From the IMG/VR virus record IMGVR_UViG_3300021400_004107: 64,000 bases of DNA; one strand, given 5' to 3'. This DNA comes from an uncultured virus (IMG/VR IMGVR_UViG_3300021400_004107). Taxonomy: Duplodnaviria > Heunggongvirae > Uroviricota > Caudoviricetes. This document shows, one piece after another, positions 21,051-42,581 of the stretch (positions are counted from its first letter, which is position 1; each line of letters opens with the position of its first letter). A program made the translations under genes and the position numbers. The notes beneath the pieces were generated by a model. That model searched no databases. It was given only the letters and a program-made list of their open reading frames with translations, and was not told the DNA's origin.

Positions 21051-21052
21051 GC

Positions 21053-21598: not shown

Positions 21599-21601
21599 GA
21601 T

Positions 21602-21967: not shown

Positions 21968-21970
21968 ATA

Positions 21971-22582
21971 ATGATAGAACGTACGATCAGATTAAATAAG
22001 GATGTGCCCTTTTGGCTCGGCGACCGCTTTTTCAAGGTCGAAAAGAGGAACAAAAAGCCCTATAGAGACACTAAAGACAGTGAGAGGACTTTTGCCACCA
22101 AGTGCCCGTCCTGTAACGATGATAGGATGATCAGATATACCGGGGCTGACGGGAGGCAATATGAGGCTCAATGCCCTGTTTGTAAAAGCTCGTACGGAGT
22201 CAGTTACGGGAACAGGATCACGCTCTCACGCTGGGAAGTACACGAGTATATCGTGAATACGATCGCTGCCTCGGGGGAACCGGTGTTGGCTGCCTACAAG
22301 AATGGTCAGTGCGTCATTGAAAATGTGTCGTTAAGAGCTTTTTGCAAGACAGGACGATGCGCAGATGATTACGTTGAAGCCACGGTACCGTATTGGACAT
22401 CTAATATCGACCCTGATATAGACAAGTTAGCTATTGATCAGACCGGCTTTACTCCGGGGGACTTCGTGTTCAGGAGTAAGAAGGATGCAGAAAGATTTCA
22501 GGCTATGCTTATCGACAATGACAAGAAGCGTCTGAGTGACTTTAATAAGAAATACCAGACGGAACACGAATATCCGTTCTGA
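21971..22582 (+). CDS. Hypothetical zinc-ribbon protein
   Basis: CPSC...CPVC. Confidence 0.55.
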   Translation: MIERTIRLNKDVPFWLGDRFFKVEKRNKKPYRDTKDSERTFATKCPSCNDDRMIRYTGADGRQYEAQCPVCKSSYGVSYGNRITLSRWEVHEYIVNTIAASGEPVLAAYKNGQCVIENVSLRAFCKTGRCADDYVEATVPYWTSNIDPDIDKLAIDQTGFTPGDFVFRSKKDAERFQAMLIDNDKKRLSDFNKKYQTEHEYPF

Positions 22583-22659
22583 TATCAGCTTGTTGTAATT
22601 CTAAGCTTGAAACCCTGCGTTTGTCCGTGGGGTTTAATTCTATCTAAGGAGCATTTACT

Positions 22660-25089
22660 ATGCCATTTATTGCAGGAGGGTTTTATACTCCAAGCCCAAG
22701 AAGGAACACCGGATTTTCTCAGAGGCAGAACTGTGTTTTTGCAAATGAACTCAAGGAAGCGATAGACAGAGGAGACCCTGTAACTCTTGAAGGCGAACTG
22801 GTCAAGGAGCGTTTCCGCAACGACTCGACCGGTATCGCCTGCATTGTTATCAGACTTACGGGCAACTCGTCTGCAAGCGGGTACATTCCCGTGATCGGGA
22901 AAGTGGTACCTCTGTCCGACGGTGCTCGAGTATCCGCTACGGGTAAAGTTGTCAATGACCCTAAGTGGGGGCTTCAGATGCCCAAGGCGCTAATTGAGCC
23001 CGTTGTGGCCAACACCAGAGCCGGTATCGTCAAGTTCCTCGTAAATGAGGTACCGGGCTTAGGTGAGAAGAAGGCCAACAGGCTATACGATGCTTACGGC
23101 GAAGACACTCTTACCGTGCTTGCTACAGCACCCGACAGAGTAGCCGAAGAAATCCGCGGCATATCTCCTGCGCTCGCGGAGAATATCAGCCGCGCCGCTG
23201 CTATTCAGACCCGTACCGTCAACCGTGACGCGCTCCTGTTCTGCCTTAACGTCGGTCTGTCTCCTAACAACGCTATCGACATCTGTGATAAGTACGGCAG
23301 TCAGTACCGCACGGTCATCACTGCCAATCCGTATTGTCTTATCGAGGATATCCACGGTATAGGCTTCAGGAAGGCGGACGCCGTAGCCATGTCCATCGGC
23401 ATTCCTGCTGACAGCAGATTCCGTATAGGTGCGGCCATCAAAGAGGTACTTTCAGAGAACGAGAATCCCGGAAGTAACGTGTATCTGGATAAGGACGCAC
23501 TTATCTTCAGGACGTCGGCACTGTTATCTAACGGCTCCGTATCTTCTCCGGTCACTAATGAGAAGATCGCGGACGTCCTGGACGAACTCGCAAGAGAAGA
23601 AGATATCGTGTTAGAACCTGACCCCGTAACAGGAGAAACGCGCTGCTATCTGCGTGAGTCTTACGAGGTGGAGAAGTTCATCGCAACGCGCTTAATGGAT
23701 ATTTCTGACGCACCTTTGTACCGGGACTACACATCCGGTGTTGTCAATTCGAGACTTAATGACCTGGAAAGGATACTCACGAGCCAAGGCTATCCGAGCC
23801 TGGACGATGACCAGAAAGAAGCAGTCATCAGAGCGCTGTCGAACAATGTCTCAGTCATTACCGGCGGTCCCGGTGTCGGTAAGACGACTATTCTGAAGTA
23901 CATCTCCGAGTATGTAGATCGTTATGTCAGCGACAAAGTCTGGCTCTGTGCTCCGACGGGCAAGGCCGCCAAGAGAATGTCTGAGCAAGCCGGAATCAGA
24001 GCATACACGATACACCGTCTGTTCAAGACAAGCGGTAATGAGGTTCCGACTCCGTCTATCATCGGTACTAAGCGATCCGGTGTGTTTATCGTCGACGAGT
24101 CTTCGATGCTGAACGAGAGACTGATGGGATCTCTTCTTAATCACTTGGGCCCGGGTGCAAAGCTCATTCTTGTCGGGGACAAGGATCAGCTGCCGTCTAT
24201 CGGCGCAGGTCAGGTCTTGAACGATATTATCAACAGCGAGTGTGTGCCTGTGTCATTCCTTACCAAGATCCATAGACAGGCAGAGGACAGCCACGTCATT
24301 TCCTGTGCTCATGCAATTAACGAGAGAGGGTATGTCGATCTGACTTCTCAGTTTAAGGACTTCGCGTTCTGCCAGGCTAATCAGTCCAACTCCAAGGAGT
24401 CGGTCCGCATCCTGTATCAGGCGGCCTTGTCCAAGGGCTATACTACAGAGGACATCCAGGTATTAAGTCCCTGGAAGAGCGAGGATAAGAGTGAGTGTTC
24501 TGCCGACGCTCTGAACGCATTCTTACAGCCGATAGTAAATCCCGCAGCCGAGGATAAGGCCGAGTTCTCTATGCCTGACGGTAAGATCTTCAGAGAGGGT
24601 GACAAGGTCATACAGTCGGCAAACGACTATGAGATTACCTGCTATGATGCAGATGATCCCGAGGAGCCGGTAGAGAACGGTGTGTTCAACGGCGAGACCG
24701 GAACTATAACCGAGATCTCCGACGAGGACGGCTGTATCTATGTCAACTACGGCGATCGTATCGCTGCGTATGACTTCGCCAATTTGAATGACTTGAAGCT
24801 CGCGTATGCTATGTCGATACATAAGTCCCAGGGCTCTGAGTATAAACTCATAATCCTGCCTGTAACCAGAGGCGGCGGCGGAGACTTCTATACCCGTAAC
24901 ATGCTTTACACGGCCGTTACCCGTGCGTCCAAGACAGTCATACTGCTCGGCGATGCTCAGTATTTTAGAAGCATGGCCAGAAACGCATCTGCGTCTAAGC
25001 GTAAGACGGCTCTTGACGAGAAGATCCGCGCTGAGATCTCTCGCAGGATCGGCTCTTCAGGCTTGAATTTTACGCCCAATGGGCTATAA
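22660..25089 (+). CDS. recD2: RecD2/TraA-like SF1B helicase
   Basis: HhH region, NPY.L..DI.GIGF..AD, GGPGVGKT, DESSM, GD.DQLPS.GAG, AYAMSIHKSQGSEY, YTAVTRA. Confidence 0.93.
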   Translation: MPFIAGGFYTPSPRRNTGFSQRQNCVFANELKEAIDRGDPVTLEGELVKERFRNDSTGIACIVIRLTGNSSASGYIPVIGKVVPLSDGARVSATGKVVNDPKWGLQMPKALIEPVVANTRAGIVKFLVNEVPGLGEKKANRLYDAYGEDTLTVLATAPDRVAEEIRGISPALAENISRAAAIQTRTVNRDALLFCLNVGLSPNNAIDICDKYGSQYRTVITANPYCLIEDIHGIGFRKADAVAMSIGIPADSRFRIGAAIKEVLSENENPGSNVYLDKDALIFRTSALLSNGSVSSPVTNEKIADVLDELAREEDIVLEPDPVTGETRCYLRESYEVEKFIATRLMDISDAPLYRDYTSGVVNSRLNDLERILTSQGYPSLDDDQKEAVIRALSNNVSVITGGPGVGKTTILKYISEYVDRYVSDKVWLCAPTGKAAKRMSEQAGIRAYTIHRLFKTSGNEVPTPSIIGTKRSGVFIVDESSMLNERLMGSLLNHLGPGAKLILVGDKDQLPSIGAGQVLNDIINSECVPVSFLTKIHRQAEDSHVISCAHAINERGYVDLTSQFKDFAFCQANQSNSKESVRILYQAALSKGYTTEDIQVLSPWKSEDKSECSADALNAFLQPIVNPAAEDKAEFSMPDGKIFREGDKVIQSANDYEITCYDADDPEEPVENGVFNGETGTITEISDEDGCIYVNYGDRIAAYDFANLNDLKLAYAMSIHKSQGSEYKLIILPVTRGGGGDFYTRNMLYTAVTRASKTVILLGDAQYFRSMARNASASKRKTALDEKIRAEISRRIGSSGLNFTPNGL

Positions 25090-25106
25090 TATATTCAGGA
25101 GTAATT

Positions 25107-25766
25107 ATGGACGGTCGAGATCTTATGCTGTACGAAGACGCCAGGAAACTAAATCGAGCGTTAGAACTCATGAAAGAATTGAGTTTTGAGAGCGAGCTCG
25201 GCGTTAGTCTTAAGAACTCTTTGGCGAAGATCGAAGAGAGGTTTGAGAATTGGCGCCTCTTCGATGATTTCGAGAAAGCCGGGGATTTTTACACGGAGCA
25301 TCTGCCGAGGGAAGAAGGTGTCGACTTACGTATAAAGGCACCCGAGTCTATTGAGAACAAACTGCTTCGTACCAGACTTATGCAACAAAAAGGTGTTTTC
25401 AGGCCCTTTGAAAAGACGTTAAACGATTTAATGGGTTTGAGAATCATCGTAAGTGATTACAGTTTGTTACTAGGGCTGAGTTTAGGAGACGGTTACAGAA
25501 TTGTTGATATGTCTCAAGGGAAGGCTACAGATGACGGATATCGGGGTATCCATGTTTACTACCAGCCGGATCACAAGCATTATCCGGTAGAACTACAGAT
25601 CATGACGGAACAAGACAGAATATTTAATCTCTGGCTTCACGAATATACATACAAGATCCAAGGCAGAGAAGACGTTGGCAGGCAATTAAGGAAACTTTAT
25701 GAAAAGGGTGTTATTAGGACAGACAAGGATTTTAAGGAGAGTTTAGATGTATTACTTAGTCGTTAA
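25107..25766 (+). CDS. RelA/SpoT-domain protein (small alarmone synthetase-like nucleotidyltransferase)
   Basis: RIK..ESI..K, ND..G.RII, GYRGIH, ELQI.T motifs. Confidence 0.75.
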   Translation: MDGRDLMLYEDARKLNRALELMKELSFESELGVSLKNSLAKIEERFENWRLFDDFEKAGDFYTEHLPREEGVDLRIKAPESIENKLLRTRLMQQKGVFRPFEKTLNDLMGLRIIVSDYSLLLGLSLGDGYRIVDMSQGKATDDGYRGIHVYYQPDHKHYPVELQIMTEQDRIFNLWLHEYTYKIQGREDVGRQLRKLYEKGVIRTDKDFKESLDVLLSR

Positions 25767-25986
25767 GAGAATGGACGCGGGTCCCGGTGCTCATTACTTG
25801 GTAGCTCCATTTGAATACGAAGACAGGCAAGAAGCTCGCGCAATTCAGAGGGCGTCTGAAGGTTCGGGCATCTATGTTGCTATCGCCTCGAATGTATCAG
25901 ATGTTTACGGCGAGTATGCTAACCATGATGAAATCAGTCTCGAAGAACTCAAGGCGGTGCTTAGCGGCTGGGGAGCGCAACTTTGA
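25747..25986 (+). CDS. Small hypothetical protein overlapping the RelA/SpoT-like gene
   Basis: AAGGAG RBS, gene overlap. Confidence 0.55.
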   Translation: MYYLVVKRMDAGPGAHYLVAPFEYEDRQEARAIQRASEGSGIYVAIASNVSDVYGEYANHDEISLEELKAVLSGWGAQL

Positions 25987-25996
25987 GGTCTAAGTT

Positions 25997-26362
25997 ATGA
26001 TTTTTGAATTGTATAAGAGTGCTATATGTCAACGAGTTAAGTCGTGTGGGTACGAGGCTTTTGTAAAGGAGGTTTCTGCTTCTGACGAGATTCCTTCGTT
26101 GCTTGAGAAGCGCGAATTTGCAGAGGCTCTGTACTTGTTGGCGATGGTCGACTACCTTTCACGCAAGTACCGGATTCCTTTGTGCGAGCGTTTCGAATCT
26201 TTGAGAGGCTTGAAGTTGACTAAAACAATTTATCCTCGAGATATAGAGTTGTTGGCTACATTACAACACAGCGACGAAGTAAAAAAGAAAGCTTGGGAGG
26301 AAGCTATTCCCGAGTTCAAAAGGCACAACATAGTAGAAAACAACGTGGAGAATGTTTGCTGA
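25997..26362 (+). CDS. Hypothetical protein resembling TA-associated antitoxin C-terminal domain
   Basis: FELYKS.IC..VK, EALYLLAMVDYLSR, AIPEFKRHNIVE pattern. Confidence 0.5.
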   Translation: MIFELYKSAICQRVKSCGYEAFVKEVSASDEIPSLLEKREFAEALYLLAMVDYLSRKYRIPLCERFESLRGLKLTKTIYPRDIELLATLQHSDEVKKKAWEEAIPEFKRHNIVENNVENVC

Positions 26363-26499
26363 CTTCTCCTCGAATAAGGGAGGATGTTTTATTTCATACA
26401 CCTTTATTACAGGCAAAGCGTGAACTTGCATTGCCCTTGAAAAAACTTGCCCAGTGGGCTATATTATAAGTAAGAAAGATTACAGGAGATGTTTTCGAG

Positions 26500-26763
26500 A
26501 TGAAGGCTCTGTTTGAACAACTGGTAGAAAAGCTCAAGGCTCTCGGCTGCACCGAAGAAGAAGTCGGTGTGTTCTCCGAGGGTTTCGCGAAGCGCTGGGA
26601 ATCCTACGTTGCTCAGTACGGAGAGACTGAGGGCAGGAGCTATGCTCGTTTTGAGTTCGAGTCGTTGCAGGTAGAATTGTTGCAGCTCGAACGTGCCGGA
26701 GTCATCTCCCGTAGACAGCGTGAACAGCTCGAGAACTTTGTTTGGGAGGGTATTTCCGCATGA
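26500..26763 (+). CDS. Hypothetical protein
   Basis: Promoter and AGGAG RBS upstream. Confidence 0.55.
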   Translation: MKALFEQLVEKLKALGCTEEEVGVFSEGFAKRWESYVAQYGETEGRSYARFEFESLQVELLQLERAGVISRRQREQLENFVWEGISA

Positions 26764-27989
26764 ATAAGCGAATACTTAACGACAGATTGAATTTCGTAGG
26801 CGAAAATGACTATGGAGGACACGGTACAAAGACAGCTGTGCTTTACAACGGCAAGCGTTATCTTATGAAGATACCGGAACCGGTAAGAGAAACAAGCGAT
26901 TTAGACCTATCTCTGCATTCGGTTTCAGAATATATTTCCTGCCACATAGCACAATCTATGGGCCTTAATTGCCAAAATACCATCCTCGGTGAATGGACTG
27001 ACAACGACGGGCACAAGTATGATTGCTGCCTTTGTGAAGACTTTACATACGGTACTGATTATAAGTTGGCTGAAGTTAAGGCTATGTGCTATAAGTATGG
27101 CGACATGACTCAGGCAGAGCGCACTGCTCTCGAAGAAACGCCTACGTTCGAACGCATAGAGAATTTCTATAAGAGAGCCAAAAACATTGACGAAAAGGAA
27201 GCCTTGCGTGAGTTCGGCAGGATCTTCGTTCTGGATTCCTTCGTCGGCAATACGGATAGACATACAGGCAATTACGGTTTTCTGCAGAACTTGGCTACGG
27301 GTGAGATCAAGCCCTCTCCAATCTACGACTGCGGTTCTTCGCTGTTCCCTACTAAGTCCGATCAGGAGATATTGGGCAAGCCTTTGGGGTATCTTTCCGG
27401 GTCTGCGGACTCAGTTATCAGACAGCCCTCGAACGAGAAGTTGAGAATCAATTACAAAGCTTTCCTCTTCGAGGATAACCTTCCCTGGTACGTTCGTGAT
27501 GCAGTCCTGGAACTCGTCCCTCGCATCAATTTGGGCCAGATAAGAAGTTGCGTTGACTCAGCCGTGCCGTATATCTCACAGCAGAGAGCAGACATTCTGT
27601 ACAACGTGCTGGAATCCAGGTACAACGACACATTGATGCTGGCGTTCAAGAATCTCCTTACTAAGGATCTGGATTTGAACGCGGCGCAGAACGTCAACAC
27701 AAGAAGGATGCAGGAAGAGATCTTAAATCCGATTAAGAAGTATCCGATTAAGACGGATATTCCTGTAAAGTTGAATAACTCTTTCGTAAGTATCTTCCGC
27801 ATCAACGAGAATGTCGCCGTCGTTAAGAACGCGGAAGGGACACCAATCAGCTATCTCGATCTCAGACCTTCTAATAAGTATGTGATCAAGACAGCGGCAA
27901 GCCTTATGTCTAACGGTTTATTGCCCGACAGTTTCCTGTCAGGCCATCCTGCTCCTACAATACCGGGCGTCGGCGGTCTTATGAGGTGA
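26760..27989 (+). CDS. HipA-like kinase
   Basis: YGG.GTK, SEYISC.I, D..VGNTDRH.GNYG, PIYDCGSSL. Confidence 0.85.
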   Translation: MNKRILNDRLNFVGENDYGGHGTKTAVLYNGKRYLMKIPEPVRETSDLDLSLHSVSEYISCHIAQSMGLNCQNTILGEWTDNDGHKYDCCLCEDFTYGTDYKLAEVKAMCYKYGDMTQAERTALEETPTFERIENFYKRAKNIDEKEALREFGRIFVLDSFVGNTDRHTGNYGFLQNLATGEIKPSPIYDCGSSLFPTKSDQEILGKPLGYLSGSADSVIRQPSNEKLRINYKAFLFEDNLPWYVRDAVLELVPRINLGQIRSCVDSAVPYISQQRADILYNVLESRYNDTLMLAFKNLLTKDLDLNAAQNVNTRRMQEEILNPIKKYPIKTDIPVKLNNSFVSIFRINENVAVVKNAEGTPISYLDLRPSNKYVIKTAASLMSNGLLPDSFLSGHPAPTIPGVGGLMR

Positions 27990-28192
27990 CAATTGTGGAC
28001 ATACACTCTATCCGTAAACTATCAGGTCTTTCACAGATCGAGTTCTCGAGGACGTATGGCATACCGCTTCGAACACTCTGCCACTGGGAAAAAGGCGACA
28101 GAAAGACACCCGACTGGGCGTTAGCGCTCCTGGAACGGGTCGTCAGAGAAGACACGGAGAACGATAAGAATGGAGAATGCAGCAGAGTTTGA
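27986..28192 (+). CDS. XRE-type HTH protein (putative antitoxin)
   Basis: IR..SGLSQ.EFS..YGIPLRTL..WE.G.R.TP. Confidence 0.85.
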   Translation: MTIVDIHSIRKLSGLSQIEFSRTYGIPLRTLCHWEKGDRKTPDWALALLERVVREDTENDKNGECSRV

Positions 28193-28943
28193 TGATTTTA
28201 AGTTTCTGAGGCAGGGTTTCTACTGCCTCGGAGATGATGTGCCTGCTTGCGAGTCCGATCCTGAAGAGGAAATGCTCTGCGCTTATTTCGGCGAGTATTA
28301 TACCGAAGGCGAGTATCTGACCGAAGGATTTACCAGAGAAGACCTTCTCGACTGGGCTTATTACGATGGTGGTTACTACGGCTATGGTTACGGCTGTGGC
28401 TACGACCTCAGCGGAGTCTCTTACGCCGTCGACAGCAACATAGGCAACGAGCCTGCCGAGCATTCCATTTCCAAGAAGATCGACATTAAGAAGCAACAAG
28501 GTCCCAGATGCTCTGCGTACGCCTCTGCGCATCTTTTGCAGTTTTATGGCGTTAAGGCCAAGCCCAAGAAGCTCTACAAGCGCTTCCGTAAGCTCCCGGA
28601 CGGTTCTGCCATACCGTCATCCGTTGCCAAGGTCACGGGTTTTAAGATGCACCGTAACGGCAGCGTCACTGACATCGAGAGATCGATCGACGCCGACAAG
28701 CCGGTCATGGTCCTCGGTTACTACGATGATGAACCGAGTTGGGACAACCTGCATTATATGCTCGTTACAGGCTATGATGCCGAGAACATCTACATAGCAG
28801 ACTCGCTGCATACCTCAGGCGAGCGCTACTATAACCGTAAGATCAAGCGCGAGGATTTCGAGGAGATGTGGGACACCTCCGAGACTTTGCTCATTAAGAT
28901 CTTCTACGGCAGGAATATCTATTACGAATACAGCGAGGTTTGA
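28170..28943 (+). CDS. C39-like cysteine peptidase with acidic Tyr/Gly-rich N-terminus
   Basis: QQGPRCSAYA, HYMLVTGYD, YIADS. Confidence 0.7.
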   Translation: MENAAEFDDFKFLRQGFYCLGDDVPACESDPEEEMLCAYFGEYYTEGEYLTEGFTREDLLDWAYYDGGYYGYGYGCGYDLSGVSYAVDSNIGNEPAEHSISKKIDIKKQQGPRCSAYASAHLLQFYGVKAKPKKLYKRFRKLPDGSAIPSSVAKVTGFKMHRNGSVTDIERSIDADKPVMVLGYYDDEPSWDNLHYMLVTGYDAENIYIADSLHTSGERYYNRKIKREDFEEMWDTSETLLIKIFYGRNIYYEYSEV

Positions 28944-28945
28944 TC

Positions 28946-29749
28946 ATGACTCCAAGAGATGACAGAAAACTCGAGCTGTTGTATAAGATGCAACAGCCGT
29001 GCTACGACGACAATAAGGCCTTCACTAACACCGCTAAGCTCGACAAGATCCGCGAGCTCTCGGAAGGGAATAGTTACTCGGCGATCCGCGTTCAGGGCGA
29101 CCTGTTTCATCTGTGTTCCCAGTCGCCGTTAGACCGTCTGGATCCCGCACACACCATTGTACTCTCTACGCACGCAGACTTTGTGCCGGCGATCCAGAAC
29201 CCTTTCGTTGAAGTAAAGGGCGATGTCCTGCACGGTACGTTCGATAACTCGGCGACTAATGCCGCAGCGTTATACCTGATGCTGGAAGCGAACCTGCCGA
29301 TGAATGTCCTGGTCGCTTTTACCGGGAACGAGGAGCACGGTATGCGAGGCGCAGCTGAACTGGACAAGTTTCTTGTATCGCAGCTCGGTACGCATCCGTT
29401 CTATCTGACGCTGGACGTCACAAATATCGGCTATAAGAAGAAGCAATATTCCATTGAGAATACCTTCTCCTTACCTGAAGAGAACATTCAGGATTTGATT
29501 CAAATATGCAAGGGCACCGGTTACAACGGTTATCTGTACCCGCAAGCTCTTGCTGACGAGTCGTATGAGTACAGCAGGCTAGGTGCTAAGTGTTGTAGCT
29601 TTTGCGTTCCTACTAAGGGTCCTATGCATTCTGACAAGGGTTGCTCTATGGAACTTACGGCGTATTTGGCATACGTCGATGTTCTGGAACGCATTACCAA
29701 GTGGTTCAGGCCTCCTATGCCTGTGGCAGAAACAGGACTTGGCAGGTAA
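28946..29749 (+). CDS. M28/M20-like Zn metallopeptidase
   Basis: STHAD, GTFDN, FTGNEE.G, LDVT, MHS. Confidence 0.7.
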   Translation: MTPRDDRKLELLYKMQQPCYDDNKAFTNTAKLDKIRELSEGNSYSAIRVQGDLFHLCSQSPLDRLDPAHTIVLSTHADFVPAIQNPFVEVKGDVLHGTFDNSATNAAALYLMLEANLPMNVLVAFTGNEEHGMRGAAELDKFLVSQLGTHPFYLTLDVTNIGYKKKQYSIENTFSLPEENIQDLIQICKGTGYNGYLYPQALADESYEYSRLGAKCCSFCVPTKGPMHSDKGCSMELTAYLAYVDVLERITKWFRPPMPVAETGLGR

Positions 29750-29794
29750 GAGGAAGATCATGTGATAATTCCCGGCATTTTTGCGTTTTTGCTC

Positions 29795-29823
29795 TTGCAT
29801 TTCTGATAAGAAGTTGCTATATT
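29795..29823 (+). promoter_or_regulatory. sigmaA-type promoter of tnpB
   Basis: TTGCAT-17 nt-TATATT preceded by TGC. Confidence 0.65.
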
Positions 29824-29864
29824 ATTTGTATAGAAAAATATAGAAAGAATTGAGGGAATGCACT

Positions 29865-31265
29865 ATGCCCCGTTCAAAGGCGCAGAATCTGGCACACAAG
29901 GGATTTAAGTACCGCATCTATCCTGACGAGGAGCAGGCAAGGCTGATCCGTCAGAATTGCGGTGCGTCACGCTTTGTGTATAACTACGCACTTCGCTATA
30001 ACATTGATGCGAGGGACGCGGCTAAGGATGCGCTTGTGCGCGAGATCGAGGAGTTTGATGCTTCTTCTGAAGATAAGGCTCTGGCTTTGAATCTTGTCAA
30101 TATGACTTCCAAGGAACGTGCTAAGCATCTGTCTGAGATAACGGCTGGTAAGCTTAGAGAGCGCCTTCCCGAAGCGATCAAGGAAATGTACGCTAAGAGT
30201 GATTTTAACGCTTTTGCGATGCGTCCGGTTGTCGTCAGTCTGCGCGACGCGCTCGATGAAAACGGTGAGTATTCTTACGAGTGGCTCAAGAACTGTGACA
30301 ACGGTCTGTTCAGCTACGCGCTCGATGCTTTGGCCAAGGCTTTCGATAAGTGGAAGAAGGGTCAGGGCGGTTTCCCTAAGTTTAAGAACAGAGGGAACTC
30401 CAACAATTCTTACACTTCGCAGTGTGTCAACAACAACGTCAAGATCATAGATGATCGCTATGTTAAGCTTCCTAAGATCTCTCCTATCAAGATGATCTAT
30501 CACAGACCTGTTGAGGGCAAGATTAAGACTGCTACGGTGTCGTATACCGAGTCCGGCAAGTATTATGTCTCTTTGTGCTGTGAGTATGAGCAGCAGGAGA
30601 TGACTAACGGCGGTGACGTGGTCGGCATTGATGTTGGCATCAAGGAGTTCTACAGCGACTCCAAGGGCAATGTTGTTGATAACCCCAAGTTCTTGAAGAA
30701 GTCGGAAGAAAGACTTCTTAAGGAGCAGAAGCGTCTTTCTAAGATGATCGAGTCTCATATTGTAGAGTATAAGACTGGTCCGAGAGGTGGACGTGTTCCT
30801 GTTTTCGATAAGCCGATCCGCGAGTGCAAGAACATACAGAAGCAGAGAAGAAAGATCGCTAAGCTTCACGAGCACATTGCTAACCAGCGTGCGTATCTGC
30901 ACGATGTCGAGAGTTCCAGGATAGCGAAGGAGAACTCCTTGGTCTGCATGGAGACTTTGAATATCAAGGGCATGATGCAGAACTCGAAGCTCGCGCAGAG
31001 CATAGCCGATACAGGTTGGTATGATTTTAAGTCCAAGGTGAACTACAAGGTTAAGGATCACGGCGGAGTTGTCGTGGAGATACCGACATTCTATCCATCC
31101 TCACAGCTTTGTTCTGTTTGCGGATTTAAGAATAAGAAGATTAAGGATCTGAGTATCAGAGTCTGGAAGTGCCCTTCGTGCGGCGCGGTTCATGACCGAG
31201 ATGTGAATGCCGGAAAGAATATCTTAGCCGAAGGCTTAAGGATATTAGAAGGCATTGGAGCTTGA
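29865..31265 (+). CDS. tnpB: CRISPR-associated TnpB/Cas12-like RNA-guided nuclease (466 aa)
   Basis: KYRIYP..EQ..G..RFVYN N-terminus, GFPKFK, RuvC GIDVG / CMETL / HDRDVNA, CSVC..CPSC zinc finger; GAGGGA RBS. Confidence 0.93.
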   Translation: MPRSKAQNLAHKGFKYRIYPDEEQARLIRQNCGASRFVYNYALRYNIDARDAAKDALVREIEEFDASSEDKALALNLVNMTSKERAKHLSEITAGKLRERLPEAIKEMYAKSDFNAFAMRPVVVSLRDALDENGEYSYEWLKNCDNGLFSYALDALAKAFDKWKKGQGGFPKFKNRGNSNNSYTSQCVNNNVKIIDDRYVKLPKISPIKMIYHRPVEGKIKTATVSYTESGKYYVSLCCEYEQQEMTNGGDVVGIDVGIKEFYSDSKGNVVDNPKFLKKSEERLLKEQKRLSKMIESHIVEYKTGPRGGRVPVFDKPIRECKNIQKQRRKIAKLHEHIANQRAYLHDVESSRIAKENSLVCMETLNIKGMMQNSKLAQSIADTGWYDFKSKVNYKVKDHGGVVVEIPTFYPSSQLCSVCGFKNKKIKDLSIRVWKCPSCGAVHDRDVNAGKNILAEGLRILEGIGA

Positions 31266-31269
31266 TAAT

Positions 31270-31437
31270 TAAATAACAGTGTAGGAAGGTTGGCCTCCGA
31301 ACACTTAAAAATATACGTCTGTGGAGATCCAACGGCGTAGCTCAAGACTCAATCGGTTGACTCAGTTTGATCGAATGGCGAATAGCCGGTTTTGAGAGCG
31401 ATGCGGTCGTAGAAGCAGAAAATATGTGTAACTTGAG
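31270..31437 (+). ncRNA. omegaRNA(reRNA)-like scaffold / putative tracrRNA
   Basis: Hairpin AGTGT..ACACT; ACGTCTGTGGAG...GAAGCAGAAA motif like IS605-type TnpB RNAs; 3' end complementary to the repeat. Confidence 0.7.
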
Positions 31438-31984
31438 GGTCAAGACCTGATGTGTTTAACACAGTAGTCAAACACGGAATTCGCGGATCTTATCAAGACC
31501 TGATGTGTTTAACACGGTAGTCAAACGGGATGGTGCAACAAGAGATCGATCGCGTGGTCAAGGCCTGATGTGTTTAACACAGTAGTCAAACAGGCTGTTT
31601 GGTGTCGAGAGTCCTGAGGGCGGTCAAGACCTGATATGTTTAACACAGTAGTCAAACTTCTCTTTCAAGCATGGGATCAGACATTTTGGTTAAGACCTGA
31701 TGTGTTTAACACAGTTGTCAAACGAGATATGGAAGGGTAGAGGCTACGAAAAAGGTCAAGACCTGATGTGTTTAACACAGGAGTCAAACGAGATATGGAA
31801 GGGTAGAGGCTACGAAAAAGGTCAAGACCTGATGTGTTTAACACAGGAGTCAAACATATATGCAAGTCCTGCTCCTAGCAGGCGAGGTCAAGACCTGATG
31901 TGTTTAACACAGTAGTCAAACTTTCGTTATAATCAATATAGCGTCTTTTTGGTCGAGACCTGATGTGTTTAACAGTAGTCAAAC
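31438..31984 (+). CRISPR. CRISPR array: 9 repeats (consensus GGTCAAGACCTGATGTGTTTAACACAGTAGTCAAAC), 8 spacers (17,29,30,30,30,30,30,29 nt); divergent 10th repeat at 32014-32049
   Basis: Repeats start at 31438, 31491, 31556, 31622, 31688, 31754, 31820, 31886, 31951. Confidence 0.96.
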
Positions 31985-32135
31985 GAGAGAAACTCCTTTG
32001 AGGAAGCATGTGAGTTTGAGAACTGGTGGCTTTTGCATTGTGACCAAACGTCACACAGTATAACCATTGGTAAGGGGGGTATAAAATTACCCGTTCGCCG
32101 AAAAATATAACTGCTATGACAAGGGAAACAAAGAT

Positions 32136-32891
32136 ATGAACGTATTAGTCATACCCGATTCGCACTTGAGAGCCTGGATGTTCGACAGCGCAGACAAAAT
32201 AATTCAGCAGCATAAGCCCGATAAGGTCGTTGTGCTTGGGGACCTGGTAGATGACTGGGACCAGCAGCGCTGCGTCGTGCTGTATCAGAAGATGATGGAC
32301 AAGTGCGTAGAATTCGCAACTAAGTACCCGGATACGGTCTGGCTCTACGGCAATCATGACATCGCCTATTTGGACGCAGCGTGTCAGTGCTCCGGACACT
32401 CCGTCTTTGCCACGGCCACAGTAGCAGAAGGTCTGAACAGAATCCAAAACGCCCTCAATGATGAGATCAGGATCGTGGCAAGGATAGACGACGTGTTCTT
32501 TTCTCATGCCGGACTTGCCGAAGTGGAATGCCAGCTGTCGAAGGAAGCGGCGAGCAGGGAAGCAGAGTGGGATCTTATAACAAAGCATTTTAATCAGATG
32601 AATTATCGTAAGCTCTGGACTGATCTGTCGCCGATCTGGTATCGTCCGAATAACAGGTTTTTGCCATATTCTGCGGGCGGATGTCTTCAGGTGGCAGGTC
32701 ATACGCCGGTCCGCATGGCAGGTCTGTTTCAAAATCTGCTTATCACAGACACGTTCTCCACGGACAGAGTGCTCAGACCATTGGGTAATCAGTATTTTAC
32801 TATGGTCGACACTAAGACACACGAGTTGATGTTCTTCGACAAGGAGGCCGGAATCGTTACAAATACCGAAGTTGTCAGCGTTATGCGATAG
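32136..32891 (+). CDS. Calcineurin-like metallophosphoesterase
   Basis: DSH, GDLVD, GNHD, SHAG, GHTP. Confidence 0.85.
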   Translation: MNVLVIPDSHLRAWMFDSADKIIQQHKPDKVVVLGDLVDDWDQQRCVVLYQKMMDKCVEFATKYPDTVWLYGNHDIAYLDAACQCSGHSVFATATVAEGLNRIQNALNDEIRIVARIDDVFFSHAGLAEVECQLSKEAASREAEWDLITKHFNQMNYRKLWTDLSPIWYRPNNRFLPYSAGGCLQVAGHTPVRMAGLFQNLLITDTFSTDRVLRPLGNQYFTMVDTKTHELMFFDKEAGIVTNTEVVSVMR

Positions 32892-33005
32892 GAGTTATTA
32901 TTTATAGAAATATATAGATAAATATTGAAAATAATTCTAAGGATGGCTATATTATATATAAGAAGATAGGTATAGATACATCTCTTAGAAGGGAGACAGA
33001 AGAAT

Positions 33006-33749
33006 ATGAAACACGACAAACGCAATGTAAAACTTATCGCCATGATCGTTATGATCGGCATTAGTGCTACGGCACTTACTGCTTGCCTCAGCAAATGTTC
33101 CAATAAAGGTACTACTAATGAGACTGTAGAGAGCGTTATCGCTACCGAGCCTGTTGAAACGACTGAGGCTTCTGAGCCTACAGTTACTCCGACTGTTACA
33201 GTCAAACCTACGGCTACTCCCAAACCTACTGCTACGGTAACTCCTACAACCGCTGTTACTGAGAATGGTGGCGAGGGTACAGAGGCTACTACGACAGCAA
33301 CGGCTACGCCTACGACAGCTGGGATTAAACCTACTGCGGCAGCTCCTACTGAGGCTCCTGCTACTCAGCCTACAGCAACTGAAGCACCTGCTACACAGCC
33401 TGCGGCTACCGAGGCTCCTGCTGTTCAGCCTACAGCTGCGCCTGAACCTACTGCGACGCCTACACCTGAGCCTACAGCTACTCCGACACCAGAGCCTACG
33501 GAACCCGAAGAACTTAACTATTGCACAGTAGATCTTGAAGTTAGAGCCGGTACGGGGGAATGGGTGTCCTATTACACAATTTACGGCTACACTGCTAATT
33601 GTGTAAACGGCGTTTGGGAAGTTAGAAACAGCGAAGCGGATAGAGCTGAGGCGGATATTCAGGCTTTGTATGAAACAGACTGGGGCTTCCCTTGTGGCGG
33701 TTGCGGTTGGACTCTCACTAATTTCAGAGATTACAGAGCAAATCCATGA
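33006..33749 (+). CDS. Pro/Thr/Ala-rich lipoprotein
   Basis: Signal peptide with LTAC lipobox; TEAPATQP and TPEPT repeats. Confidence 0.8.
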   Translation: MKHDKRNVKLIAMIVMIGISATALTACLSKCSNKGTTNETVESVIATEPVETTEASEPTVTPTVTVKPTATPKPTATVTPTTAVTENGGEGTEATTTATATPTTAGIKPTAAAPTEAPATQPTATEAPATQPAATEAPAVQPTAAPEPTATPTPEPTATPTPEPTEPEELNYCTVDLEVRAGTGEWVSYYTIYGYTANCVNGVWEVRNSEADRAEADIQALYETDWGFPCGGCGWTLTNFRDYRANP

Positions 33750-33769
33750 TCATTGAGGAAAGGAGACAA

Positions 33770-33815
33770 ACGACGGAGCCTTCGGGCTCCGCCTTTATTT
33801 TTTGTCTGTCTATGC
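33770..33815 (+). repeat. 46-bp direct repeat containing a terminator, copy 1
   Basis: Identical to 34612-34657; CGGAGCC-TTCG-GGCTCCG hairpin + T-tract. Confidence 0.9.
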
Positions 33816-33853
33816 TGATGAATGGTCAGATTAAAATATGTTGTTGATATAAG

Positions 33854-34549
33854 GTGGTATATATGGACTTAAGAAATGAATTAAAACATTTAATTGATAA
33901 TCCTCTTAAACCCAACCCGTCTGAATGGGCTATGGATGCAGAAGACGTATTGGATAAAATGAATAGCCTTTCGGAAGAAGCACGGAGACACATTAAAATA
34001 ATCAAAATGCACGGTGGAGCATTTATGCAAGATAATGATGCTCTTGTTGCTATTTTGAAAAGAGCCTATAAAGCTGTGGCGGTGACAATTGTGCCTCCGC
34101 CGATCAAAACAAGGCATCAAGTATTTGTTGCAATGAAGTTCGATGATGAGCGTGAACGTTTGTATAAAGAAGTATTGACTCCAGTAGTTCAATCAGCGAA
34201 TTATTCAATAATTAAGGTCAATGAACAGGAATACGAAGGATCTGTTATTGAAAAGATAATTGATGATATTACTGATTCAACAATTCTGATCGCTGATTTA
34301 ACTGGAAATCGTGGTGGTGTGTATTATGAATTGGGTATAGCAAGGGGGCTTCAATTATGCAACCACCCCATCAAAATAATTCTTACTTGTGAAAAAGTTT
34401 TCTTTGATAGTGAGGGAGTTCATTTTGATGTTCAAGGAGATAACATCATTCTTTACACTTCTGATATTGATTATAAAGAAAAATTGACTCGAAGGATTCA
34501 GGCGTATCAAAGCAAAAAAGAGAATGATGATCATTATGCCCAGACCTAA
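33854..34549 (+). CDS. Nucleoside 2-deoxyribosyltransferase/TIR-like protein (AT-rich, putative defence effector)
   Basis: QVFVAM.F, IADLTGNRGGVYYE.G.A, VHFD. Confidence 0.7.
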   Translation: MVYMDLRNELKHLIDNPLKPNPSEWAMDAEDVLDKMNSLSEEARRHIKIIKMHGGAFMQDNDALVAILKRAYKAVAVTIVPPPIKTRHQVFVAMKFDDERERLYKEVLTPVVQSANYSIIKVNEQEYEGSVIEKIIDDITDSTILIADLTGNRGGVYYELGIARGLQLCNHPIKIILTCEKVFFDSEGVHFDVQGDNIILYTSDIDYKEKLTRRIQAYQSKKENDDHYAQT

Positions 34550-34613
34550 GAAAGACGGTAAAGTAATAAATTAATATGTACGGAAAGACTTGGCTGATCG
34601 CCTTGATCTATAC
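34536..34613 (+). pseudogene. Remnant of RHH-type gene (MPRPKKDGKVIN*YVRKDLADRLDLY)
   Basis: In-frame stop and truncation at the direct repeat. Confidence 0.4.
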
Positions 34614-34657
34614 GACGGAGCCTTCGGGCTCCGCCTTTATTTTTTGTCTGTCTATGC
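34612..34657 (+). repeat. 46-bp direct repeat containing a terminator, copy 2
   Basis: Identical to 33770-33815. Confidence 0.9.
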
Positions 34658-34712
34658 ACAAATAGTTACATTTTTGATATTATAATTAAGAAATAGATGA
34701 GAGGAGCGGAGT

Positions 34713-35903
34713 ATGGCAGGGAATAAAGACTTAGGCAAGGCCAAAGATGCTAAGAAAGACGAGTTTTATACTCAATTAGAAGATATAGAGCTTGAAATGA
34801 AGCATTACAAACAGCACTTCAAAGGCAAGACTGTATTCTGTAATTGTGACGACCCATATGAAAGCAACTTCTTCAAGTATTTTGCTATGAACTTTAACTA
34901 CCTGGGTCTTAAGAAACTTATTTCGACTTGTTATGTCTCCTCGCCTGTAATGTACACTCAACTGTCATTGTTCGATGACATGGAACAGACTTTTGAGAAG
35001 CCTGCAGATCCGAATAAGAAACCATATAAAGTTGAAATCACCGAAGTTACAGACGAAAATGGCGACGGTGCGTTCGATCTGGATGATATAAAGCAGCTCC
35101 TAAAGAGTAAAAAGAATGTCTGTACTGTCTTAAAAGGTGACGGAGATTTTCGTTCTGATGAGTGTGTTGAACTCTTAAAAGAAGCGGATATTGTGGTTAC
35201 TAATCCGCCATTCAGTTTATTTCGGGAATATGTATCACTTCTGACGAAATATGGTAAGGATTTTATCATTCTTGGTAATCAGAACGCGATTAACTATAAG
35301 GAAGTTTTTCCTTTGATAAAAGCTAATAAGGTTTGGCTCGGGGCCAGTATACACAGTGGAGACAGAGAATTCCGTGTTCCTGACGATTATCCGCTGCAAG
35401 CATCGAGTTATCGTGTGGATGATGAGGGCATCAAATATATTCGGGTAAAGGGAGTGCGTTGGTTTACCACTCTTGATTACGAAGAGCGACACGAAGATTT
35501 GATCCTATATAAATCATATGCACCAGCAGAATATCCTAAATATGATAACTATGACGCTATCGAGGTAGCAAAGACCGCCGAAATCCCTTGTGATTATTAC
35601 GGTGTCATGGGGGTACCCATTACATTTATGGATAAGTACAACCCAGATCAGTTCGAAATAGTAGGCATCAGTAAGACCTGGGCGACCGATTACGAGGTAA
35701 CTAAGTCAAAAGTATATAGAAACGCTGTTCAGTATAACAAGGATGGTACAAGGACATCTGGAAACAAGGTCAATGATGGCAGCGTCATTGCCTTAACCGA
35801 AAAACCGGAAGGAACCTATTACATGGATGACGCGTCTCCGGATAGGTATCTTGTACAGGTTTATGCCCGTATATTTATTCGCAGAAAGGAGCAACCCGTA
35901 TGA
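34713..35903 (+). CDS. EcoRI-family adenine DNA methyltransferase
   Basis: AK.DEFYT, CNCDDP, GDFRS.EC, VTNPPFSLFR, MGVPITF. Confidence 0.9.
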   Translation: MAGNKDLGKAKDAKKDEFYTQLEDIELEMKHYKQHFKGKTVFCNCDDPYESNFFKYFAMNFNYLGLKKLISTCYVSSPVMYTQLSLFDDMEQTFEKPADPNKKPYKVEITEVTDENGDGAFDLDDIKQLLKSKKNVCTVLKGDGDFRSDECVELLKEADIVVTNPPFSLFREYVSLLTKYGKDFIILGNQNAINYKEVFPLIKANKVWLGASIHSGDREFRVPDDYPLQASSYRVDDEGIKYIRVKGVRWFTTLDYEERHEDLILYKSYAPAEYPKYDNYDAIEVAKTAEIPCDYYGVMGVPITFMDKYNPDQFEIVGISKTWATDYEVTKSKVYRNAVQYNKDGTRTSGNKVNDGSVIALTEKPEGTYYMDDASPDRYLVQVYARIFIRRKEQPV

Positions 35904-36991
35904 AGATCGATCTTCACGAAATTACAGTAAAAGATGTAACTGAAGGATTTAAGGATTCTGCTGAGAACGGAGTTGTGGGTTATAACGGCAAGCTCAATAT
36001 CCGCCCTGCGTTTCAGCGTGAGTTCGTCTATTCAGGCAAGCAGCGTGATGAAGTTATAAATACTGTTCGCAACGGCTTCCCCCTTAACGTGATGTATTGG
36101 GTAAAGTCTGACGACGGCAACTATGAGCTCCTGGACGGCCAGCAGCGCACGTTATCCATCTGCCAGTATGTAAACGGCGATTTCTCTCTTAACAGCAAAT
36201 ACTTCCATAACCTGACACAGACTGAGAAAGACCAGATCCTGAACTACAAGCTCATGATCTACATCTGTGAGGGCAATGACAAAGAGAAACTCGACTGGTT
36301 CAAGATCATAAATATCGCCGGCGAAGAGCTGACAGCTCAGGAGCTCCGCAACGCAATCTACACAGGTCCGTTCATCTCCGATGCCAAGCGTTACTTCAGT
36401 AAGTCCGGCTGTGCAGCATATCAGATCGCAGGTGACTACATGTCCGGATCTGCTATTCGCCAGGACTACTTAGAAGCCGCCATCAGCTGGATCGCAGCCA
36501 GAGAGGATAAGTCCATCGAGGACTACATAGCCGAGCACCAGCACGATGCCAATGCCAACGCGCTCTGGCTCTATTTCCAGCAGGTCATAAGCTGGGTCAA
36601 AGTCGTGTTCCCGAAGTACCGTAAGGAGATGAAAGGCTTACCTTGGGGCATCTATTTCAATAAGTATGGTGCTAATTCCTATGATGCCAATGTCCTTGAA
36701 GAGCGCATTGTCGAGCTTATGGAGGATGAAGAAGTTACCAGCAACAAGGGTATCTATGAGTATCTGCTCTCGGGTAACGAGAAGACTCTGAGCCTAAGGG
36801 CTTTTCCGGATAAGATAAAGAGAGCTGTCTACGAGAAGCAGGGTGGTAAGTGCGCCTTCTGCGGGCAATCTTTCCCGATCGAGCGCATGCAGGGCGATCA
36901 TATCGTTGCCTGGAGCAACGGTGGCACTACAGTCATCGAGAACTGTCAGATGCTCTGCGCTCAGTGCAACGGTACGAAGTCCAATCACTGA
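35900..36991 (+). CDS. DUF262 + HNH restriction endonuclease
   Basis: RP.FQRE.VY, DGQQR; C-terminal C..C..DH...W..GG.T..N.Q.LC..CN. Confidence 0.88.
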   Translation: MKIDLHEITVKDVTEGFKDSAENGVVGYNGKLNIRPAFQREFVYSGKQRDEVINTVRNGFPLNVMYWVKSDDGNYELLDGQQRTLSICQYVNGDFSLNSKYFHNLTQTEKDQILNYKLMIYICEGNDKEKLDWFKIINIAGEELTAQELRNAIYTGPFISDAKRYFSKSGCAAYQIAGDYMSGSAIRQDYLEAAISWIAAREDKSIEDYIAEHQHDANANALWLYFQQVISWVKVVFPKYRKEMKGLPWGIYFNKYGANSYDANVLEERIVELMEDEEVTSNKGIYEYLLSGNEKTLSLRAFPDKIKRAVYEKQGGKCAFCGQSFPIERMQGDHIVAWSNGGTTVIENCQMLCAQCNGTKSNH

Positions 36992-36995
36992 CACT

Positions 36996-37160
36996 ATGGA
37001 TCGGTCTGACTACAACAACCTCACGCCTGAAGAAAAGCGCCGTCAGCTCTACCTTATCCAGAAAAACACCCTGGATAAGTTCCTGGAGCGTAAAGCTATA
37101 TCCGAATACCAATACGAACAGAGTCTCCGGGAGCTTCAGACCAAGATGTGCCTTCAATAA
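36996..37160 (+). CDS. Small hypothetical protein
   Basis: ATG five nt after the HNH gene stop. Confidence 0.45.
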   Translation: MDRSDYNNLTPEEKRRQLYLIQKNTLDKFLERKAISEYQYEQSLRELQTKMCLQ

Positions 37161-37296
37161 ACTCTTCTCTTATCTACTCAAAAGCCTATTCTCAAAGGTC
37201 GGGAAAATAAATCCTGTCTCCTCTACTTAATTTTGCATTTTTTGTAACATTACACGCTATAATATAAATAAGGAATATTTATAAGGATGTAATGTT

Positions 37297-38502
37297 ATGA
37301 CAATCGATAAACGAGAAGGTAAGAAGGGTGTGTCTTACCGTATAAGGGTGTACGCCGGAGCAGACGCTACAGGCAAAAAGAGGTTTTTTGTCGAGACATA
37401 CAATCCGCCTCCGGGTATGTCGGCCAGGCAGGCTTATAAGGAGGCTTATCAGATCGGGCTTGAACTTGAAAAGCGTTGCGAAAAGGGCGCTCCGGTTGAG
37501 TACGACCGCTTGACTTTCGCAGAGTTTGTGAACGGTATGTACACAGAACAGCACTTATCCAAGCTCAAGTCACGCACCAGAGCCGGATACCTGGAGATAC
37601 TTAATGCGAGGATCCTGCCGTACTTCGGCAGTATGTACCTGCGCAAGATCAAACCCGGTACTATCCGTGCGTGGCTCGACGGTCTCAAGAGATTCGACAC
37701 CAGCCCTTTCAAAGGCGAACTTACCGATACCAGCAAAGCTGATTGGCTGAGGACGTTATCTGCAGTGCTCGGTAAGGCTTACGAGTGGGAGCTCATAGAC
37801 GAGAATCCCTGCCGGCGCGTCAAATCGCCTACCAAAGCTAAGATCAATGTTGTTGCATGGCAACTGGAAGACGTTAGGAAAGTTTTGACCAGTCTTGACG
37901 CTTATAAGAACATCCGCGCATGCATGTTCATACTGGTCGCATTGAACTCGGGACTTCGTGAAGGCGAACTTGCGGGACTGCAATGGTCTGACTTTGATTT
38001 TGAGGATAATAAGTTCTCTGTCAACCGTACGATCCACTACGAAAAGGGAGGCTTGGTTGTCGATACTCCTAAGACTCAACATGGCTATAGAGACATTCCG
38101 TTCAGTGACGCTTTGAAAGACAAACTCCTGCAATATAAGATCTGGCAAGACGAACAGATAGAAAAGCTCGGCGACCGGTATTTGGGGAATCCTGGCCTTA
38201 ATGCCAATGTCTTTATGGCCAAAAACGGAAAACCCGTCTATGATACTACATTTCGCAAGTGGCTCAGGGATTACTGTGAGTGGTGTGGCGTGCCGAGGAT
38301 CCCTGTCCATGCTTTGAGACATACCTTCGCTTCCGTGCTTATAGCCAACAATGTCGATGCCAGAACAGCTGCGGATCTTCTGGGTCACGCGTCGGCGTCT
38401 CTGGTCCTTGACGTGTATGCAAATCCGCAGGACGAAGCCAAGAAAAGAGCTGTTAAAAAATTAGACGACGTGTATAATAATTCAGACAGCAAAAAGCCGT
38501 AA
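37297..38502 (+). CDS. Tyrosine integrase
   Basis: GLREGE..GL.W.D, PKT, HALRHT, LLGH, Y catalytic pattern; N-terminal arm-binding region. Confidence 0.95.
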   Translation: MTIDKREGKKGVSYRIRVYAGADATGKKRFFVETYNPPPGMSARQAYKEAYQIGLELEKRCEKGAPVEYDRLTFAEFVNGMYTEQHLSKLKSRTRAGYLEILNARILPYFGSMYLRKIKPGTIRAWLDGLKRFDTSPFKGELTDTSKADWLRTLSAVLGKAYEWELIDENPCRRVKSPTKAKINVVAWQLEDVRKVLTSLDAYKNIRACMFILVALNSGLREGELAGLQWSDFDFEDNKFSVNRTIHYEKGGLVVDTPKTQHGYRDIPFSDALKDKLLQYKIWQDEQIEKLGDRYLGNPGLNANVFMAKNGKPVYDTTFRKWLRDYCEWCGVPRIPVHALRHTFASVLIANNVDARTAADLLGHASASLVLDVYANPQDEAKKRAVKKLDDVYNNSDSKKP

Positions 38503-41340: not shown

Positions 41341-42168
41341 TTACTGACTTAATAGGTCGGCGATGGAGACTGCTATCTCCGGTGCCTTTGTCGCCGGGCA
41401 ATTTCCCTTACCTGCACAGAACGCGCAATGCTCGCCGGTATGGTATTCGCCCTCGTTCTTAAGAGCCTGCTCCACCTTGACGTTCGTATCGGCAGCCCAA
41501 GCCTTCAGTTCCGTTACCGTTAGCTTGTCGTGTGAAATCGCTCCAACTGTGGGAAGGGTCTTTACGAAGCCCTTGGAGTAGTCGGTAGTTGCCCTCGGCT
41601 GGAAGATATAGTATTCCGCTTCGGTGACATTCTTTCTCTCGTGCTCGGGCAAAGACAGATATGCGCCGAGAGAATAGGCTCTGAGCTGGAAATTGCCCGT
41701 AGCCTTAACCAATGCGTGACCATACTTGAAGTCAACTATGGTGATCTTGGTAGGAGAGACCAGGAAACAGTCGCAAGTACCCCAGCACTCAGAAAGGTAC
41801 TTGGTCATATCGACCTTGCGCTCTGTATAGATCTTGGTGTAACCGCCACCCTGATACAATCTCAAGATAAAATCCCTGTAAGCCGCGCCGCAGATGCGCA
41901 TTGCACGGTCAGCTCTCTTAGCCTCTTCGACAGAGTCCGGCTGCAAGGGCAGGCCAAACGCTTCGTTGACCATGTTCTCGGCAACAGCGTGCGCTGTCGT
42001 GCCTTCCTTAGCGGCTTCCGATGTCGTCTCGCCGTGCTCTAAACGGTAATCTTCGTTTATCTTAAGGGACTTTGTACAGGAAACTGTCCGAACAAGCGAA
42101 GAGGGGGACACTAAAGCGTGCTCCCTCTGGACAATTGAGTTTGAGTTTGAGTTCGTGTTGTTCGGCAT
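41341..42168 (-). CDS. DUF2800-type PD-(D/E)XK (Cas4-like) nuclease
   Basis: HALVSPSS..C, EGT.AH, GTCD...IVDFKYG, QLRAY, C.FC...C. Confidence 0.8.
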   Translation of the reverse strand: MPNNTNSNSNSIVQREHALVSPSSLVRTVSCTKSLKINEDYRLEHGETTSEAAKEGTTAHAVAENMVNEAFGLPLQPDSVEEAKRADRAMRICGAAYRDFILRLYQGGGYTKIYTERKVDMTKYLSECWGTCDCFLVSPTKITIVDFKYGHALVKATGNFQLRAYSLGAYLSLPEHERKNVTEAEYYIFQPRATTDYSKGFVKTLPTVGAISHDKLTVTELKAWAADTNVKVEQALKNEGEYHTGEHCAFCAGKGNCPATKAPEIAVSIADLLSQ

Positions 42169-42475: not shown

Positions 42476-42477
42476 TT

Positions 42478-42571: not shown

Positions 42572-42581
42572 ATAGCATCGA

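Follow-up and report, generated by a model that had tools for sequence, protein, structure and literature searches.

The window, by which we mean the whole stretch of 64,000 nucleotides analysed here, is by its predicted gene content a conjugative mobile element rather than a phage. Its conjugation genes comprise a MobA/VirD2 relaxase, a T4SS coupling protein, PrgI, a VirB4-like ATPase and a cell-wall hydrolase, and a replication module is made up of a family-A polymerase, a VapE-like primase-helicase, VRR-NUC, an SNF2 helicase and a topoisomerase. A sigma-70 factor of its own (17307-18359) is present as well, and a tyrosine integrase is encoded after a defence island. One part of the window (41655-57436) is identical to positions 17698-33479 of metagenome contig OCVV012856584.1, and the window starts about 24 kb ahead of the first base of that contig. 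The exact HTH protein discussed below is also present on a contig of 267,713 bases, which implies that much of the element lies outside the window; the element, or its integration context, is far larger (more than 126 kb) than the 64 kb in the window.

The defence island occupies 25107-38502 and houses the CRISPR array that concerns us here. It also encodes a RelA/SpoT-like protein, a HipA-like kinase (PADLOC PDC-M03A), C39 and M20 peptidases, a metallophosphatase and a TIR-like ORF, together with a type II restriction-modification pair, an EcoRI-type methylase and a GmrSD/HNH restriction enzyme, in a stretch of low GC content (39%).

Ahead of the array and on the same strand, a gene at 29850-31265 (plus strand) encodes a TnpB-derived RNA-guided nuclease, the predicted effector of the array, identified from Pfam, PADLOC and PDB matches. 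The protein is 471 residues long from a TTG start codon, or 466 from an ATG at 29865. It combines the Pfam domains HTH_OrfB_IS605, OrfB_IS605 and Cas12f1-like_TNB, which is the set found in IS605-type TnpB, and PADLOC assigns it to Cas12u4 (1.4e-57) and Cas12f (3.3e-57). ISDra2 TnpB is the closest PDB entry (1e-53), and the match to LaTranC (4.7e-36) is confined to the C-terminal 160 residues of the effector. In the printed PDB alignments, its GIDVG, METL and HDRD segments align with the RuvC motifs of TnpB; we take these segments to carry the catalytic RuvC Asp-Glu-Asp, and with such motifs aligned the effector looks like an active nuclease. The nearest proteins, among 5.8 billion, are TnpBs of about 400 residues with 54% identity, and the 90% cluster of the effector is found on 7 contigs. 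Its 28 matching loci in genome_contigs are all distant TnpBs, which do not exceed 39% identity where the match is long and reach 51% where it covers a short segment. Cas1, Cas2 and Cas4 are missing from the 62 ORFs scanned in the window. On these domain and similarity matches, which include a RuvC-type core and a zinc-ribbon (TNB) domain, the array effector is a TnpB-derived type V protein, TranC / V-U4-like; effector and 10-repeat array may belong to a TranC / V-U lineage not yet described.

The array itself (31438-32049, plus strand) contains eight good copies of a 36-nt repeat, GGTCAAGACCTGATGTGTTTAACACAGTAGTCAAAC, followed by a ninth (31951-31984) with a 2-nt deletion and one substitution, and by a strongly decayed tenth (32015-32049) in which 20 of 31 aligned bases are as in the repeat. 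Spacers are 29-30 nt long, with the exception of S1, which has 17 nt. We read the array on the plus strand because repeat decay is found at its far end and because the effector gene lies on the same strand; if it is transcribed in this direction, we argue that spacer 8 (31922-31950, plus strand), at the decayed end, occupies the old, leader-distal side of the array. The region between the effector gene and the array (31266-31437, plus strand) is, by position only, the probable leader and/or tracrRNA scaffold. A search for anti-repeats on both sides of the array returned only short and weak complementarity, and no Rfam family matched in the effector-array region. The array also shows irregularities at 31474-31555 and 31724-31819, where the short S1 is followed by a repeat 2 with a changed 5' end and where S5 and S6 are identical in sequence. 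These alterations and duplicates indicate that the array has been rearranged and that growth was not the sole process shaping it.

Spacer 8, TTTCGTTATAATCAATATAGCGTCTTTTT, whose sequence and position were established by sequence read-out and exact-word search, lies between an intact repeat upstream (31886-31921) and the decayed ninth repeat downstream (31951-31984). A sequence-only reading had proposed that this spacer matches, in two pieces, the promoter and leader of a tRNA array within the same element, and both read-outs and exact-word search bear out the proposal. Spacer positions 1-12 are identical to 47735-47746 (12/12, plus strand) and positions 13-29 match 47779-47795 (plus strand) with two mismatches (15/17), the two halves being separated by 32 extra bases (47747-47778, plus strand) that are missing from the spacer. 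The placement of this block is ambiguous by 2 nt, AT being common to both ends; given the shared AT, the match first described, positions 11-29 against 47777-47795 at 17/19, is the same alignment. The terminal C of the repeat also pairs with 47734, which brings the bases held in common to 13 contiguous ones. The distance from spacer 8 to the target site is 15.8 kb.

With a gap allowed, the local alignment of spacer 8 against the window scores 38.45. As a null model for the pair of halves, 300 dinucleotide-preserving shuffles of spacer 8 were aligned against the real window, giving a mean score of 23.4 (sd 2.1) and a maximum of 33.3; none of the 300 reached 38.45, so that the split match is significant against such controls. 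Taken separately, the left half scores 24, a value equalled by 235 of 1000 shuffles and thus not significant, and the right half scores 28, equalled by 18 of 1000, which is marginal. The signal resides in the collinearity of both halves. It belongs to spacer 8 only: among the nine spacers compared, all others score 29 or less against the window. The split self-match is real and statistically solid, and is not due to chance.

The site matched by spacer 8 belongs to a divergent control region (47721-47976), with a gene for a Cro/CI-type HTH regulator, recognised by domain search, to its right (47977-48321, plus strand) and a small ORF to its left (47577-47720, minus strand). The latter, read out from the sequence, has 47 codons and a strong RBS, GGACAAAGGAC, and is the first gene after the promoter; 115 nt separate it from the first tRNA gene of an array on the same strand, in which 32 tRNA genes (42478-47462, minus strand) were counted by ARAGORN and 27 by Rfam at gathering score. 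The small ORF has no Pfam match and belongs to no known family, and its exact protein was not found in a collection of 15 billion proteins. The leader peptide proposed by the sequence-only reading is therefore retained as a 47-codon ORF with an RBS ahead of the tRNAs, and as an ORF only. The tRNA genes serve all 20 amino acids, Ile through two anticodons (GAT and TAT), and one promoter-like site and the 47-codon ORF lie ahead of them.

By a consensus scan, the control region has a single promoter-like site on each strand. The one on the minus strand (47807-47780) reads TTGCCT-16-TATATT, and its plus-strand counterpart (47897-47925) reads TTGATT-17-TATACT. The -10-like TATATT (47785-47780, minus strand), itself part of a motif, GGTCGCTATATT (47791-47780), falls in the right half of the match, and the left half, on the minus strand, corresponds to the last 12 nt of the 5' leader, ending 1 nt short of the GGACAAAGGAC RBS. 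In outline, then, the site does span a -10 box and the region upstream of the RBS, as first described. The motif GGTCGCTATAYT is found at three promoter-like sites (47780-47791, 47914-47925 and 52539-52550). At the HTH-side site it appears in the mirrored form GGTCGCTATACT, the two copies of the control region forming an inverted pair, and the third copy (52537-52550, minus strand), identical at 14 of 14 positions to 47778-47791, precedes the gene for the family-A DNA polymerase by 36 nt. When up to two mismatches were allowed, a motif scan yielded four matches including the spacer itself, against 0.36 expected, and none of 100 shuffles reached four.

Between the two divergent promoter-like sites lies a perfect palindrome, AATTTGTGCAAATT (47841-47854), a likely operator for the HTH regulator encoded next to it. 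With the 32 bases included, the 5' leader folds no better than usual (z = -1.6, with 14 of 200 shuffles folding equally well), and an Rfam search of the target-site region retrieved tRNAs only. Among the RNA contigs from a metatranscriptome of what may be the source sample, one spans 47518-47785 and includes the 32 bases and the left half; RNA contigs are absent over 47799-48175, and one ends at 47785. Such contigs indicate presence only and cannot mark transcript ends, and no inference is drawn from their edges.

A second partial match of spacer 8 (positions 1-18, 17/18) is found at 34464-34481 (minus strand), inside the 3' end of the TIR-like ORF. This match is continuous over the junction that is split at 47.7 kb, and its score of 31 is equalled by 3 of 1000 shuffles. 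Its 5' flank resembles the end of the repeat, with 23 of 26 bases in common over repeat end and spacer, and the 5' flanks of the two partial self-matches differ (TTTGTCC at 47.7 kb, GTCAATT at 34464-34481). It may be due to chance, it may be a relic, or the site may belong to the same promoter-like motif family as a member with a short linker.

For the other spacers, no protospacer was traced in plasmids, phages or viral_contigs, and 22-mers of S2, S3, S4, S5 and S7 had no match in viral_contigs. A match between S2 and the VirB4-like gene of the element itself (22/29, 12618-12646, minus strand) was rejected as evidence: its mismatches are distributed over all codon positions, with no wobble bias, and its score of 29 is within the chance tail across seven spacers. 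The best match of S3 was also rejected, as it requires a 1-nt gap inside a coding region.

The block of 32 bases occurs once in the window, with no donor copy there. Contigs from three further studies cover the full 851-nt stretch around the site with 97.8-98.8% identity (10, 16 and 19 differences from the window), and all three retain the 32 bases, with a single T>C change at 47760 in two of the three. The 32 bp are thus fixed in four lineages. Both matched halves are unchanged in all three relatives, although zero changes in 31 matched bases is uninformative, since the 256-nt control region, with its 10 changes, predicts only about 1.2. It had been suggested that the insert might be an escape from self-targeting; since all three inspected relatives carry the 32 bases, a recent escape private to this element can be set aside.

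Relatives with an uninterrupted protospacer, which the same reading had envisaged, were not found in the viral, genome, plasmid or phage collections. The 22-mer of spacer 8 has no match in viral_contigs, and a 17-mer spanning the junction retrieves 13 viral loci that are only 17-23/29 identical to the spacer, which is the chance level. A gapped pattern covering the continuous and the interrupted forms had no match in genome_contigs (185,579 species). The whole array had no match in plasmids and just three 23-nt matches in phages (E=7), and blastn of 47300-48400 against plasmids and phages matched the tRNA part alone. In genome sets from one family (401 genomes) and one class (399 scored genomes), the target-site region gave only chance-level matches of 23-32 nt, and spacer 8 with up to three mismatches was found in none of four genomes. 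In metagenome_contigs, VapE retrieved the window's own sequence and four loci at 54-76% identity, none of them resembling spacer 8.

The explanation that we favour, tentatively and at somewhat less than even chance, is that spacer 8 derives from a sibling allele of the tRNA-operon promoter and leader that lacks the 32 bp, and that it enables the element to tell a competitor from itself. We do not place it higher because the short allele was not seen in our searches and the PAM of the effector was not derived. The protospacer would then have been the promoter and 5' leader of the small-ORF/tRNA operon in its short form, in an element of the same family; a deletion between the two AT dinucleotides would be one simple route to such an allele. 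Acquisition would have taken place in trans, as suggested by the lack of visible adaptation genes. The RNA of TnpB and type V systems carries its guide in the 3' part, with the PAM or TAM on the 5' side of the protospacer, which would make the left half of the match the PAM-proximal part. Provided that the system is active at present, the resident allele would pair with the guide over 12 (or 13) PAM-proximal bases and then diverge; with pairing stopped after 12-13 bp, the R-loop should be blocked and no self-cleavage is expected. A sibling with the short allele would, by contrast, be fully matched by the guide and hence excluded. A spacer taken from a near-identical competitor could be retained only where the two elements differ, and one that covers an indel junction would satisfy this.

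Several observations agree with an origin from a sibling allele. The left half, which is identical to this leader at 12 of 12 positions, is only about half identical, as compared by eye, to the paralogous leader of the polymerase gene, which argues that the source was an allele of this locus. The decayed, leader-distal position of spacer 8 and its two further mismatches fit an old spacer. The 90% cluster of the HTH protein beside the site is found on 36 contigs against 7 for that of the effector, so siblings without the effector may exist. As for the length of pairing, ISDra2 TnpB is described as having a guide of 16 nt and a seed about 12 bp long (PMC13639567), and a TnpB-like TranC is reported to have similar needs in guide length (10.64898/2026.03.27.714800). 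TTC/TTTN PAMs are reported for two characterised TranCs, and the 5' flank of the 47.7-kb site (..TTTGTCC) is unlike these, which counts against the sibling-allele explanation. That the array targets siblings is a claim that rests on spacer 8 as its sole support.

The principal alternative, which we regard as unlikely, is that no indel ever occurred at the 47.7-kb locus and that the spacer was drawn from a paralogous promoter with the same modules, a -10 motif, a short linker and an AACGAA-RBS, situated in the unseen part of the element or in a relative; the 47.7-kb site would simply have the longer linker. The right half does carry a motif common to three promoter-like sites, the left half by itself is insignificant (235 of 1000 shuffles) and overlaps AACGAARGGA, a stretch that also precedes the polymerase gene, and a continuous junction of the form TATTGA-TTAT-AAnGAAA does exist at 34464-34481. 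Moreover, with the HTH protein on a contig of 267,713 bases, there is ample unseen sequence to accommodate such a promoter. The collinearity of the match speaks against this alternative, however: all 12 bases of the left half lie in order within 32 nt of the right half, an arrangement that no shuffle in 300 reproduced as a pair, and the other two motif copies are accompanied by far less of the left half. Were such a promoter in the same element, the guide would also match it in full, and with an intact RuvC nuclease this self-targeting should kill the element.

Less probable again is that the spacer was derived from the element itself and that insertion of 32 bp after protospacer position 12 rescued the element from self-cleavage. 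The break is inside the protospacer, just past a seed of the length described for TnpB (about 12 bp; PMC13639567), and both flanks are identical in all lineages. Against this, point mutations or deletions are the usual means of escape, the 32-base block is unique and has no donor in the window, and it was already fixed in lineages 1.2-2.2% diverged; the two extra mismatches in the distal half would also have to be accounted for.

We find it very improbable that the match serves regulation through the seed only, in the manner of CreR/CreTA, in which the nuclease would bind the leader between transcription start and RBS, leave it uncut and thereby tune the small ORF and the tRNA operon. The 12 contiguous PAM-proximal matches equal the length of the TnpB seed (PMC13639567), crRNA-like RNAs that are partly complementary to promoters are described as repressing transcription with Cas12a and Cascade (10.1101/2023.03.10.532045), the repeat downstream of spacer 8 is decayed, and the site is within a regulatory region. 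On the other hand, the flank is unlike TTC, the guide would pair with the non-template strand, and the spacer belongs to a normal array 16 kb from its target, whereas CreR and CreA adjoin theirs. The distal half matches as well, which regulation would not need, and the unchanged 31 nt in the three relatives, with about 1.2 changes expected, is uninformative on this point. Slimmer still are the prospects of an elaboration by analogy with CreR/CreTA, in which the 32-bp block would have turned a lethal self-target into a regulator and spacer 8 would be kept as part of a circuit that makes tRNA supply, or a small toxic ORF, depend on whether the nuclease is present. Origin from a sibling allele thus remains our preferred explanation, and most likely the split match records a conflict with a sibling element, not an active self-attack.

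Work on TnpB-derived arrays has to date been concerned mainly with genome editing. If the spacer does come from a sibling allele, the locus would offer a natural example of a nuclease aimed at near-identical competitors without self-killing, in which a spacer spanning an indel provides allele-specific recognition, and inter-element exclusion would be a biological role for a TnpB-derived array. If the match is regulatory instead, the smallest type V effectors, and a tRNA operon, would join the known cases of crRNA-like regulation. On either account, a target identical to the spacer and the target interrupted by 32 bp make a defined pair with which the need for contiguous pairing can be measured.

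The locus can be set against four kinds of known systems. Self-targeting spacers can be tolerated through mutation of the target or of the PAM, and spacer 8 is comparable to these in that it matches its own genome at a target that differs enough to prevent cleavage. It departs from them in that the difference is a 32-bp block inside the protospacer, common to diverged lineages, instead of a point mutation or deletion. CreR/CreTA systems (10.1101/2023.03.10.532045; PMC8501985), as described there, share with it a decayed repeat on one side, and its 12 (or 13) contiguous proximal matches recall their PAM-proximal match to a promoter. Spacer 8, unlike these stand-alone mini-arrays, is the eighth unit of a regular array, has an intact upstream repeat and is 15.8 kb from its target, which is neither a cas promoter nor a known toxin; its PAM-distal 17 nt also match after the 32-nt gap, and this distal match points to common descent rather than to designed partial pairing.

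A closer likeness is to TranC and type V-U systems (LaTranC, PDB 9JFO; 10.64898/2026.03.27.714800, 10.1101/2025.09.28.678669). TranCs are described as TnpB-derived nucleases with short arrays of 32-38-bp repeats and without adaptation genes of their own; their PAM lies on the 5' side, and a tracrRNA is encoded between the effector gene and the array (10.64898/2026.03.27.714800). Our locus resembles them in its TnpB-like RuvC protein, its 36-nt repeats, about nine in number, its lack of cas1/cas2, its occurrence in animal-gut metagenomes and its location on a mobile element. It differs in that only the C-terminal 160 residues of the effector align to LaTranC and in that its nearest proteins are TnpBs of about 400 residues, 54% identical.

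With regard to its carrier, the array can be compared to those borne by plasmids and other mobile elements and directed against competing plasmids (Pinilla-Redondo et al., NAR 2021/22, PMC9071438; reviewed in PMC11656645), whose plasmid-borne spacers are reported to be biased to other plasmids, especially conjugative ones, and which often miss adaptation genes (PMC9071438). Here too the carrier is conjugative, adaptation genes are not found nearby, and the sole traceable spacer is directed at an element that is itself conjugative and of the same kind. The differences are that the effector is a TnpB-derived miniature nuclease, and not of type IV, type I or V-F, and that the single match is to the carrier itself and interrupted, no target having been found in another element. 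Altogether, the locus fits the known biology of CRISPR systems deployed between mobile elements, as a rare case of a TnpB-derived array on a conjugative element.
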